Below, piece after piece: positions 50,433 to 55,935 of a DNA stretch of 64,000 bases (its first letter is position 1; each line of letters starts with the position of its first letter). Origin of the DNA: Escherichia coli (GTDB taxonomy: Bacteria > Pseudomonadota > Gammaproteobacteria > Enterobacterales > Enterobacteriaceae); the NCBI RefSeq assembly GCF_013315695.1, contig NZ_CP054353.1; one strand, given 5' to 3'. The translations under genes and the position numbers were made by a program. The notes under the pieces were generated by a model. The model did not search any database. It worked only from the letters and a program-made list of their open reading frames with translations, and was not told where the DNA came from.

Positions 50433-50769
50433 GCTTCACCTCAACTTCACATATAAAAATTCAAAAATTTGTGCAAATTCACAACTCAGCGGGACAACGT
50501 TCAAAACATTTTGTCTTCCATACCCACTATCAGGTATCCTTTAGCAGCCTGAAGGCCTAAGTAGTACATATTCATTGAGTCGTCAAATTCATATACATTA
50601 TGCCATTGGCTGAAAATTACGCAAAATGGCATAGACTCAAGATATTTCTTCCATCATGCAAAAAAAATTTGCAGTGCATGATGTTAATCATAAATGTCGG
50701 TGTCATCATGCGCTACGCTCTATGGCTCCCTGACGTTTTTTTAGCCACGTATCAATTATAGGTACTTCC

Positions 50770-51972
50770 ATGTCGAGTAAGTTAGTACTGGTTCTGAACT
50801 GCGGTAGTTCTTCACTGAAATTTGCAATCATCGATGCAGTAAATGGTGAAGAGTACCTTTCTGGTTTAGCCGAATGTTTCCACCTGCCCGAAGCACGTAT
50901 CAAATGGAAAATGGACGGCAATAAACAGGAAGCGGCTTTAGGTGCAGGCGCCGCTCACAGCGAAGCGCTCAACTTTATCGTTAATACTATTCTGGCACAA
51001 AAACCAGAACTGTCTGCGCAGCTGACTGCTATCGGTCACCGTATCGTACACGGCGGCGAAAAGTATACCAGCTCCGTAGTGATCGATGAGTCTGTTATTC
51101 AGGGTATCAAAGATGCAGCTTCTTTTGCACCGCTGCACAACCCGGCTCACCTGATCGGTATCGAAGAAGCTCTGAAATCTTTCCCACAGCTGAAAGACAA
51201 AAACGTTGCTGTATTTGACACCGCGTTCCACCAGACTATGCCGGAAGAGTCTTACCTCTACGCCCTGCCGTACAACCTGTACAAAGAGCACGGCATCCGT
51301 CGTTACGGCGCGCACGGCACCAGCCACTTCTATGTAACCCAGGAAGCGGCAAAAATGCTGAACAAACCGGTAGAAGAACTGAACATCATCACCTGCCACC
51401 TGGGCAACGGTGGTTCCGTTTCTGCTATCCGCAACGGTAAATGCGTTGACACCTCTATGGGCCTGACCCCGCTGGAAGGTCTGGTCATGGGTACCCGTTC
51501 TGGTGATATCGATCCGGCGATCATCTTCCACCTGCACGACACCCTGGGCATGAGCGTTGACGCAATCAACAAACTGCTGACCAAAGAGTCTGGCCTGCTG
51601 GGTCTGACCGAAGTGACCAGCGACTGCCGCTATGTTGAAGACAACTACGCGACGAAAGAAGACGCGAAGCGCGCAATGGACGTTTACTGCCACCGCCTGG
51701 CGAAATACATCGGTGCCTACACTGCGCTGATGGATGGTCGTCTGGACGCTGTTGTATTCACCGGTGGTATCGGTGAAAATGCCGCGATGGTTCGTGAACT
51801 GTCTCTGGGCAAACTGGGCGTGCTGGGCTTTGAAGTTGATCATGAACGCAACCTGGCTGCACGTTTCGGCAAATCTGGTTTCATCAACAAAGAAGGTACC
51901 CGTCCTGCGGTGGTTATCCCAACCAACGAAGAACTGGTTATCGCGCAAGACGCGAGCCGCCTGACTGCCTGA
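50770..51972 (+). CDS. ackA: acetate kinase
   Basis: 400-aa [26 protein letters not shown]..., acetokinase signature. Confidence 0.95.
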
Positions 51973-51977
51973 TTTCA

Positions 51978-52009
51978 CACCGCCAGCTCAGCTGGCGGTG
52001 CTGTTTTGT
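51978..52009 (+). terminator. stem-loop in the ackA-pta spacer (possible attenuator/partial terminator)
   Basis: CACCGCCAGC-TCA-GCTGGCGGTG followed by CTGTTTTGT. Confidence 0.5.
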
Positions 52010-52046
52010 AACCCGCCAAATCGGCGGTAACGAAAGAGGATAAACC

Positions 52047-54191
52047 GTGTCCCGTATTATTATGCTGATCCCTACCGGAACCAGCGTCGGTCTGACCAGC
52101 GTCAGCCTTGGCGTGATCCGTGCAATGGAACGCAAAGGCGTTCGTCTGAGCGTTTTCAAACCTATCGCTCAGCCGCGTACCGGTGGCGATGCGCCCGATC
52201 AGACTACGACTATCGTGCGTGCGAACTCTTCCACCACGACGGCCGCTGAACCGCTGAAAATGAGCTACGTTGAAGGTCTGCTTTCCAGCAATCAGAAAGA
52301 TGTGCTGATGGAAGAGATCGTCGCGAACTACCACGCTAACACCAAAGACGCTGAAGTCGTTCTGGTTGAAGGTCTGGTCCCGACACGTAAACACCAGTTT
52401 GCCCAGTCTCTGAACTACGAAATCGCTAAAACGCTGAATGCGGAAATCGTCTTCGTTATGTCTCAGGGCACTGATACTCCGGAACAGTTGAAAGAGCGTA
52501 TCGAACTGACTCGCAACAGCTTCGGCGGTGCAAAAAACACCAATATTACCGGCGTTATCGTTAACAAACTGAACGCTCCGGTTGATGAGCAGGGTCGTAC
52601 CCGTCCGGATCTGTCCGAGATTTTTGACGACTCCACCAAAGCAAAAGTGAACAACGTTGATCCGGCGAAGCTGCAAGAATCCAGCCCGCTGCCGGTTCTC
52701 GGCGCTGTGCCGTGGAGCTTTGACCTGATCGCGACTCGTGCGATCGATATGGCTCGCCACCTGAATGCGACCATCATCAACGAAGGCGACATCAATACTC
52801 GCCGCGTTAAATCCGTCACTTTCTGCGCACGCAGCATTCCGCACATGCTGGAGCACTTCCGTGCCGGTTCTCTGCTGGTGACTTCCGCAGACCGCCCTGA
52901 CGTGCTGGTTGCCGCTTGCCTGGCTGCCATGAACGGCGTAGAAATCAGTGCCCTGCTGCTGACTGGCGGCTACGAAATGGACGCGCGCATTTCTAAACTG
53001 TGCGAACGTGCTTTCGCTACTGGCCTGCCGGTATTTATGGTGAACACCAACACCTGGCAGACCTCTCTGAGCCTGCAGAGCTTCAACCTGGAAGTTCCGG
53101 TTGACGATCATGAGCGTATCGAGAAAGTTCAGGAATACGTGGCTAACTACATCAACGCTGACTGGATCGATTCTCTGACTGCCACTTCTGAGCGCAGCCG
53201 TCGTCTGTCTCCGCCAGCGTTCCGTTATCAGCTGACTGAACTTGCGCGCAAAGCGGGCAAACGTATCGTTCTGCCGGAAGGTGACGAACCGCGTACCGTT
53301 AAAGCAGCCGCTATCTGTGCTGAACGTGGTATCGCAACTTGCGTACTGCTGGGTAATCCGGCAGAGATCAACCGTGTTGCAGCCTCTCAGGGTGTAGAAC
53401 TGGGTGCAGGCATTGAAATCGTTGATCCAGAAGTGGTTCGCGAAAACTATGTTGGTCGTCTGGTCGAACTGCGTAAGAACAAAGGCATGACCGAAACCGT
53501 TGCCCGCGAACAGCTGGAAGACAACGTGGTTCTCGGTACGCTGATGCTGGAACAAGATGAAGTTGATGGTCTGGTTTCCGGTGCTGTTCACACCACCGCA
53601 AACACCATCCGTCCGCCGCTGCAGCTGATCAAAACTGCACCGGGCAGCTCCCTGGTATCTTCCGTGTTCTTCATGCTGTTGCCGGAACAGGTTTACGTTT
53701 ACGGTGACTGTGCGATCAACCCGGATCCGACTGCAGAACAGCTGGCAGAAATCGCGATTCAGTCCGCTGATTCCGCTGCGGCCTTCGGTATCGAACCGCG
53801 CGTTGCTATGCTCTCCTACTCCACCGGGACTTCTGGTGCTGGTAGCGACGTAGAAAAAGTTCGCGAAGCAACTCGTCTGGCGCAGGAAAAACGTCCTGAC
53901 CTGATGATCGACGGTCCGCTGCAGTACGACGCTGCGGTAATGGCTGACGTTGCGAAATCCAAAGCACCGAACTCTCCGGTTGCAGGTCGCGCTACCGTGT
54001 TCATCTTCCCGGATCTGAACACCGGTAACACCACCTACAAAGCGGTACAGCGTTCTGCCGATCTGATCTCCATCGGGCCGATGCTGCAGGGTATGCGCAA
54101 GCCGGTTAACGATCTGTCCCGTGGCGCACTGGTTGACGATATCGTCTACACCATCGCGCTGACTGCGATTCAGTCTGCACAGCAGCAGTAA
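52047..54191 (+). CDS. pta: phosphate acetyltransferase
   Basis: 714-aa ORF with GTG start; N-terminal DRTGG/CobQ-like regulatory part and C-terminal PTA domain. Confidence 0.95.
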
Positions 54192-54230
54192 TCTCGTCAT
54201 CATCCGCAGCTTTGCGCTGCGGATATCGGA

Positions 54231-54262
54231 ACCGGAAATAGTCACTATTTCCGGTTTTTTAT
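54231..54262 (+). terminator. rho-independent terminator after pta
   Basis: CCGGAAATAG-TCAC-TATTTCCGG followed by TTTTTTATTC; preceded by a second hairpin CCGCAGC-TTTGC-GCTGCGG. Confidence 0.75.
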
Positions 54263-55901: not shown

Positions 55902-55909
55902 AAATGTTA

Positions 55910-55935
55910 AGAGCCGCAATTGCGGCTCTTTTTTC
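55910..55935. terminator. bidirectional terminator between yfcC and yfcD
   Basis: 20-nt perfect palindrome AGAGCCGCAATTGCGGCTCT followed by TTTTTT. Confidence 0.7.

Follow-up and report, generated by a model that had tools for sequence, protein, structure and literature searches.

The window, meaning the whole stretch of Escherichia coli DNA that was analyzed, comprises 64,000 nucleotides and carries the genes ackA (50770..51972, plus strand, 400 aa, with a TGA stop codon at 51970-51972) and pta (52047..54191, plus strand, 714 aa, with a GTG start codon). Both were defined from the list of open reading frames (ORFs) and from the RefSeq annotation of an identical E. coli genome, in which they are annotated as acetate kinase and phosphate acetyltransferase, respectively. 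The sequence and the ORF list place a spacer of 74 nt between them (51973..52046), with the coordinates and sequence that had been claimed for it in an earlier, sequence-only reading of this DNA. No feature is annotated within this spacer in the RefSeq record of the identical genome. The spacer was found to have the order TTTCA-CACCGCCAGC-TCA-GCTGGCGGTG-CTGTTTTGTAAC-CCGCC-AAATC-GGCGG-TAACGAAAGAGGATAAACC, after which the GTG of pta follows. It contains two hairpins, and a 601-nt stretch around the first of them was matched in 5425 of 5426 complete E. coli genomes, the identity being at least 99% in 5405.

The translation start region of pta (52034..52049, plus strand) consists of the Shine-Dalgarno sequence AAGAGG (52034-52039), a gap of 7 nt and the GTG at 52047-52049. 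In an alignment of 42 distinct Enterobacteriaceae sequences both AGAGG and the GTG are invariant, and the start codon of pta is GTG at 78 of 80 Enterobacterales loci, with ATG found in Candidatus Erwinia dacicola and TTG in one Erwinia MAG. The conservation of a weak GTG behind a strong AAGAGG Shine-Dalgarno sequence suggests that translation of pta may be deliberately held down. No sigma-70 promoter was found on the plus strand, either in the spacer or in the 3′ part of ackA, at the threshold of the scan. Downstream of pta lies a canonical operon-end terminator (54230..54256, plus strand), with perfect arms of 13 nt followed by TTTTTTATT and a terminator score of +24 to +26, which served as a comparison element. 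On the minus strand, an ORF of 756 aa (51975-54245) is antisense to the whole of pta; no gene is annotated there, and it is most likely a shadow ORF arising from codon bias.

The first hairpin (hairpin 1; 51978..52000, plus strand) begins 5 nt past the stop codon of ackA and is made up of the 5′ arm CACCGCCAGC (51978-51987), the loop TCA (51988-51990), and the 3′ arm GCTGGCGGTG (51991-52000). The 10-bp stem reported in the sequence-only reading is borne out, as the two arms pair perfectly, with 8 G-C pairs closed by a loop of 3 nt, and the same structure was returned by a terminator scan. Folding of hairpin 1 alone gave −18.9 kcal/mol. The 91-nt region containing it folds at −36.5 kcal/mol, compared with −23.8 ± 2.9 kcal/mol in 200 dinucleotide shuffles (z = −4.4), none of which was as stable as the native region, and all pairs of the stem have predicted probabilities of 0.99–1.0 within a context of 274 nt. 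These dimensions fall within those of intrinsic terminator stems (approximately 5–14 bp, GC-rich, with a loop of 3–8 nt on the transcribed strand).

Structures of this kind are rare in the window. The pattern of hairpin 1, with up to three mismatches allowed, occurs once in the 64 kb and in none of 100 shuffles, and a scan of the whole window for inverted repeats with a short loop identified three that are perfect and have arms of 10 nt or longer, namely hairpin 1, the operon-end terminator of pta (54230-54256), and the terminator between yfcC and yfcD (55909-55930). A published Term-seq 3′ end of yfcD falls at the last of these. Hairpin 1 is accordingly in a rare local class, the other two members of which are genuine operon-end terminators. 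The yfcC/yfcD element is itself a perfect 11-bp palindrome (AAGAGCCGCAA/TTGCGGCTCTT) between two convergent genes; it matches the sequence at the Term-seq 3′ end at MG1655 position 2,418,606, which sets the MG1655 coordinate as the window position plus 2,362,700.

Two other classes of element were considered for hairpin 1 and rejected. A REP/BIME or other dispersed repeat does not agree with its copy number, as each of 5423 E. coli genomes has it once and the window has a single match. A known RNA family is also not indicated, with the best overlapping Rfam 15 matches reaching 15.5–16.8 bits (E ~9) in comparison with gathering scores of 39–43. As a separate observation, the 3′ arm contains GCTGGCGG (51991-51998), which differs by one transition from the Chi octamer GCTGGTGG; at four of the loci from related species (L007, L019, L023, and L024) the arm reads GCTGGTGGTG, a perfect Chi, which forms a G·U pair in the RNA stem. 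This likeness to Chi is probably a coincidence.

For the study of conservation, ackA-pta junctions were fetched from 80 Enterobacterales species and their spacers extracted, and Dickeya and Brenneria were looked up additionally. This comparison covers Enterobacterales other than Morganellaceae; a protein search aimed past the order gave matches that were all within Enterobacterales. Hairpin 1, together with a T-run, was identified just past the ackA stop codon in Enterobacteriaceae, Erwiniaceae, Yersiniaceae (Serratia, Rahnella, Rouxiella, and some Yersinia), Hafniaceae, Budviciaceae, and Pectobacteriaceae (seen in Dickeya and Brenneria). Among the 80 species it was found to be absent from three Yersinia loci (L074, L078, and L079). 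The distance from stop codon to stem varies from 5 to 14 nt across genera, and families with a spacer of 150–190 nt keep the hairpin, at a position far from the start of pta. In Samsonia, Edaphovirga, and Brenneria the stem is extended to 13 bp (CAACACCG...CGGTGTTG), with TTTT immediately after it.

Covariation was assessed in a plain MAFFT alignment of 70 Enterobacterales sequences (69 distinct) that had been fitted to no structure. Over the 69 distinct sequences, 98.4% of the stem cells of hairpin 1 are in standard pairs, and compensatory double changes are present in eight of the ten pairs, e.g., C-G to U-A, A-U to U-A or G-C, and G-C to C-G. This degree of pairing and covariation was matched in none of 500 shuffles, and sliding the partner by 1–3 columns reduced the paired fraction to 24–64%. 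The same helix was independently predicted by RNAalifold. The stem sequence is also well preserved, having a mean identity to E. coli of 91% compared with 60% at synonymous third positions of neighboring ackA codons, and even at the most divergent loci these values are 86 and 49%, respectively. Within Escherichia, the spacer varies in both loops and at a single base that lies between the ackA stop codon and hairpin 1, and is otherwise constant. On the basis of these sequence comparisons, hairpin 1 is under strong structure-preserving selection across the enterobacterial order.

The cells outside Watson-Crick pairing indicate the strand on which this selection would act. Eleven are G·U wobbles as read on the plus strand, compared with four A·C cells, three of which are at the loop-closing pair (two of them in stems that are one column out of register) and the fourth in a misregistered stem. 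This bias assigns the selected structure to the ackA-pta transcript. A terminator serving the minus strand was rejected on the same bias, and also since the minus-strand tail is not T-rich.

Directly after hairpin 1 is the U-rich tail CTGTTTTGT (52001..52009, plus strand). The "short U-rich stretch" noted in the sequence-only reading does exist, although it is sub-canonical. Intrinsic terminators have a tract of approximately 7–9 nt that adjoins the stem and is rich in U also near it; the tail (CUGUUUUGU) has U at six of nine positions, but at only one of the first three (C-U-G), and its longest run is 4 U. In the 70 aligned sequences, the T residues at 52002 and 52004-52006 are conserved at 90% or more. 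The T-run is also kept in Erwiniaceae, Yersiniaceae, Pectobacteriaceae, and Budviciaceae (and weakly in Hafnia), all of which are without the second hairpin of the spacer, and so its conservation is not explicable solely by pairing within the spacer. Conservation of the T-run favors a terminator over a plain stability hairpin, as judged from the alignment.

Terminator strength was estimated by a discriminant of the d'Aubenton-Carafa type with a threshold of 0, for which current energy parameters were used, so that the values are approximate. The E. coli hairpin 1 obtained an approximate score of −7.4, which is below the threshold. Orthologs having a TTGTTTT tail (Cedecea, Buttiauxella, Siccibacter, Pantoea, Erwinia, and Budvicia) obtained +13 to +26. 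The T-score of the tail follows the same order, being 1.66 in E. coli, 3.2–3.5 in the TTGTTTT genera, and 5.0 for the terminator of pta. The tail is weakened by one T-to-C change at its first position in the Escherichia-Salmonella-Citrobacter-Klebsiella-Enterobacter-Kosakonia group. The simplest reading of these sequence differences is that a fairly strong ancestral terminator between ackA and pta became leakier in the clade of E. coli.

A second hairpin (hairpin 2; 52013..52027, plus strand), which had been missed by the sequence-only reading, was identified by folding and covariation and is confined to Enterobacteriaceae. It is formed by CCGCC (52013-52017) and GGCGG (52023-52027) around the loop AAATC and is located directly upstream of the Shine-Dalgarno sequence of pta. 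In the 42 distinct Enterobacteriaceae sequences, both-side changes were observed in four of its five pairs (CCGUC/GACGG, GCGCC/GGCGC, and others), while within Escherichia it varies in the loop only; more distant genera have a different hairpin in its place. The motif ACGAAA (52030..52035, plus strand) is the predicted partner of the U-tract at 52004-52009 in read-through RNA, where the two would add a basal helix to hairpin 2. The pair probabilities of this helix are 0.9–1.0 by prediction, and both of its sides are invariant, so that covariation is neutral on the pairing. If this basal extension is real, the spacer would be structured throughout from 51978 to 52035, and RNase E, which prefers open single strands, would find the U-rich linker paired.

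An alternative pairing of the GGCGG of hairpin 1 with the CCGCC of hairpin 2 is possible in E. coli; it was judged by inspection not to be maintained across genera, because the stem of hairpin 2 differs in several of them. As an attenuator, such a pairing would also form too late, with RNA polymerase already beyond the U-run.

Taken together, hairpin 1 and its U-run are best read as a conserved intrinsic terminator, weakened and leaky in E. coli, which would also cap the 3′ end of ackA, and we assign this reading a probability of approximately 0.5. Its basis is anatomy and conservation, from which each step of the mechanism is deduced. On transcription of 51978-52009, the 10-bp GC-rich stem would form behind the U-rich RNA:DNA hybrid (CUGUUUUGU), and part of the transcripts would be released approximately 7–9 nt past the stem, near 52007-52009. 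The product would be a monocistronic ackA mRNA with a 3′ end capped by hairpin 1 and shielded from 3′ exonucleases, while other polymerases would continue into pta. Leakiness in E. coli could have two sources, namely a proximal U-tract that is poor (C-U-G) and the closeness of the stop codon to the stem (5 nt), whereby a terminating ribosome would be expected to mask the first 5–6 nt of the 5′ arm, an estimate that is based on general knowledge of ribosome footprints. Since the distance from stop codon to stem varies between genera, such masking would not be a conserved part of the mechanism. The expected outcome is more ackA message than pta message from the ackA promoter and a partial independence of the two genes.

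A number of published observations bear on this proposal. Cotranscription of the two genes has been described (Kakuda, 1994, cited by PMC10269713). When ackA mRNA was silenced with antisense RNA, AckA activity was lowered by 78% but Pta activity by 48% (PMC1635301), and repression by the small RNA SdhX affects AckA and spares Pta (PMC6393394, PMC9438474). These three observations are compatible with a partial uncoupling at the ackA/pta junction. A separate pta promoter reportedly lies inside ackA, which could be an alternative account of these observations and of the partial independence of pta.

Synonymous conservation along ackA was calculated over 77 species and has a peak of 0.88–0.94 at codons 2–10 (50773-50800), which is the site of the published pairing with SdhX. 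A second peak (0.85–0.88 compared with 0.73 overall) occurs at codons ~270–285 (51577-51622) and could be due to codon bias or to an embedded signal, e.g., a pta promoter.

Published maps of RNA ends have little to say on the junction. The curated Term-seq ends of Adams et al. (2021) include none at ackA/pta in three conditions, and the canonical pta terminator is equally missing, which makes the data uninformative on this point. Likewise, the Term-seq data for LB at OD600 0.4 in the same study have no end between MG1655 positions 2,406,927 and 2,418,606, a gap that includes the canonical terminator of pta. The portions of supplementary text searched for the TIER-seq study of Chao (2017) and the SMRT-Cappable-seq study of Yan (2018) contain no mention of ackA or pta. 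A full-text literature search found no account of a terminator or hairpin at the ackA/pta junction.

The sequence-only reading had offered a partial terminator or a processing site as the role of the hairpin, by which the ackA:pta expression ratio could be set. The general idea of a terminator-like or 3′-end hairpin is in keeping with the anatomy of the element and with its order-wide, compensatory, and strand-specific conservation. The processing version has become slightly disfavored, as the U-rich linker is predicted to be paired with ACGAAA. In its purely post-transcriptional form, this version would have all polymerases reading through, the bicistronic mRNA being cleaved later within the spacer or close to it, and hairpin 1 blocking 3′-to-5′ exonucleases, so that the ackA segment outlives pta or decays independently of it; hairpin 2 may then shape the 5′ end of pta. 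We regard this as unlikely, while acknowledging that it is well matched to a stem that is both very stable and conserved, to a U-tract that is below the terminator threshold in E. coli, and to the unequal response of AckA and Pta to ackA antisense RNA or SdhX. In addition, the linker can be written as GU↓UUU, which fits the sequence RN↓WUU that RNase E is said to prefer. However, the T-run is conserved at 90% or more, also where hairpin 2 is lacking, although a hairpin serving stability would have no need of a U-run, and the linker is predicted to be paired (0.9–1.0), while RNase E prefers single-stranded RNA. Neither ackA nor pta was found in the searched, possibly incomplete, text of the TIER-seq supplement (Chao, 2017).

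A more elaborate proposal takes the two-hairpin spacer as a whole to be a cis element for the separate regulation of ackA and pta. In it, hairpin 1 would serve both as the 3′ cap and as a terminator gated by ribosomes, with read-through tied to the distance between ribosome and polymerase, and the capped ackA segment could be degraded or repressed (e.g., by SdhX) without pta, thereby tuning acetyl-phosphate; a specific partner of the stem is also conceivable, given how unusually well its sequence is conserved. The idea of ribosome gating comes from the position of the ackA stop codon 5 nt before the stem. This proposal is doubtful at present.

It is improbable that the spacer acts as a structural insulator of pta translation, with hairpins 1 and 2 keeping the Shine-Dalgarno sequence and GTG in a defined context and making the rate of pta translation independent of ackA sequence and ribosome traffic. 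Such a role would agree with the predicted pairing of nearly the whole spacer from 51978 to 52035, up to the Shine-Dalgarno sequence, with the covariation of hairpin 2, with the near invariance of the AACGAAAGAGG...GTG block in Enterobacteriaceae, and with the retention of the weak GTG start in 78 of the 80 loci. It does not account for the conserved T-run or for the conservation of hairpin 1 where the spacer is 150–190 nt and the hairpin is 100 nt or more from pta, and the accessibility of the Shine-Dalgarno sequence in the predicted minimum free energy (MFE) structure is equivocal.

A docking site for a trans-acting factor, i.e., ProQ or Hfq at the 3′ end of ackA, a 3′UTR-derived small RNA, or a sequence-specific protein, is very improbable. 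The stem sequence itself is 86–100% identical between species compared with ~49–60% at synonymous sites, as might be expected of such a site, and terminator hairpins at mRNA 3′ ends are the preferred sites of Hfq and ProQ (PMC6393394). Against this, synonymous conservation over the last ~20 codons of ackA is 0.64–0.75 compared with 0.73 overall, which gives no sign of a conserved seed, the U-tail has only 4 consecutive U where ~6 or more are needed for Hfq, Rfam matches are at noise level, and the loop sequences are free to vary.

Finally, action at the DNA level as a palindrome, whether as a cruciform or as the operator of a dimeric protein, and a relic terminator that is now functionless can both be largely dismissed, since the perfect 10-3-10 symmetry and the covariation that operator half-sites would also display are outweighed by a G·U bias on the plus strand (11, with A·C rare and at the helix end or misregistered) that would be unexpected for DNA or for a minus-strand RNA, by a loop insertion of ~125 nt in four species that parts the half-sites but keeps the RNA base helix, and, in the case of a relic, by purifying selection that is strong relative to synonymous sites.

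A sigma-54 promoter in the 3′ arm of hairpin 1 (TGGC...) was also considered and rejected, there being no GC at −12 and the published RpoN peak being in the spacer between yfbV and ackA. This peak was obtained by genomic SELEX for RpoN (sigma-54) and corresponds to approximately 50433-50769 of the window (PMC8743547); it is unrelated to hairpin 1 but does bear on the transcription of ackA-pta.

The leaky-terminator reading matters in the first place because AckA and Pta flank acetyl-phosphate, a global phosphoryl and acetyl donor, which makes the AckA:Pta ratio physiologically relevant. Hairpin 1 is a concrete and easily mutated candidate for the uncoupling of ackA and pta within one operon, and it is relevant to metabolic engineers, by whom this locus is edited. 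If it is only a weak terminator, it would be a routine addition to the intra-operon attenuators.

In comparison with known systems, hairpin 1 is of an ordinary element type, namely a terminator-like hairpin within an operon, and its locus has been studied very thoroughly. ERIC/IRU repeats are the first group to be compared, as copies are present in the ackA-pta spacer of several relatives and at four loci a copy is found inside the loop of hairpin 1 itself. Unlike in these relatives, the E. coli spacer is without ERIC, and hairpin 1 is a host structure rather than part of a repeat. The copies within the loop are of ~125 nt (core AATCCCCAGGAGCGTAC...GTACGTGACTGGGGTGAG) and were located in Citrobacter sp. 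wls619, Klebsiella michiganensis, K. oxytoca, and Raoultella planticola (L007:1801-1996, L019:1801-2000, L023:1801-2000, and L024:1801-2000). Both arms and the T-run are retained at these loci, where the RNA is predicted to fold into a single long hairpin that has the original 10-bp stem as its base. Elsewhere, Yersinia aleksiciae (L078) and Y. massiliensis (L079) have an ERIC of the Yersinia type and no hairpin 1, Budvicia (L066 and L069) has hairpin 1 followed by ERIC, and Buttiauxella (L047) has a short remnant of an ERIC end. Across relatives, the ackA-pta spacer thus resembles an ERIC hot spot. The spacer of Y. thracica (L074) is 42 nt and has no hairpin of any kind.

The REP elements between malE and malF are intercistronic stem-loops that stabilize mRNA. 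Like these, hairpin 1 is stable and located at the 3′ end of the upstream gene, where it could block exonucleases and lead to unequal stability of the two segments. It differs in being single-copy and in having a conserved U-run, which is absent from REPs.

Hairpin 1 also shares a perfect stem, a short loop, and a location just past a stop codon with canonical operon-end terminators, e.g., that of pta (54230-54256), and its orthologs in Serratia, Brenneria, Pantoea, and Cedecea score as true terminators (+13 to +26). In contrast to the canonical pta terminator (+24 to +26), it is located within the operon, scores −7.4 in E. coli and has an expressed gene, pta, downstream.

Partial intrinsic terminators within operons (attenuators) are known in E. 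coli from rplL/rpoB and rpsU/dnaG, where both termination and read-through have been measured. In comparison with these, the ackA-pta site has a weaker U-tract (proximal C-U-G) and a stem that begins 5 nt past the stop codon, and it is known from its sequence. As in rplL/rpoB and rpsU/dnaG, however, a GC-rich hairpin and a U-run are found on the sense strand between cotranscribed genes, and more of the upstream message would be expected.
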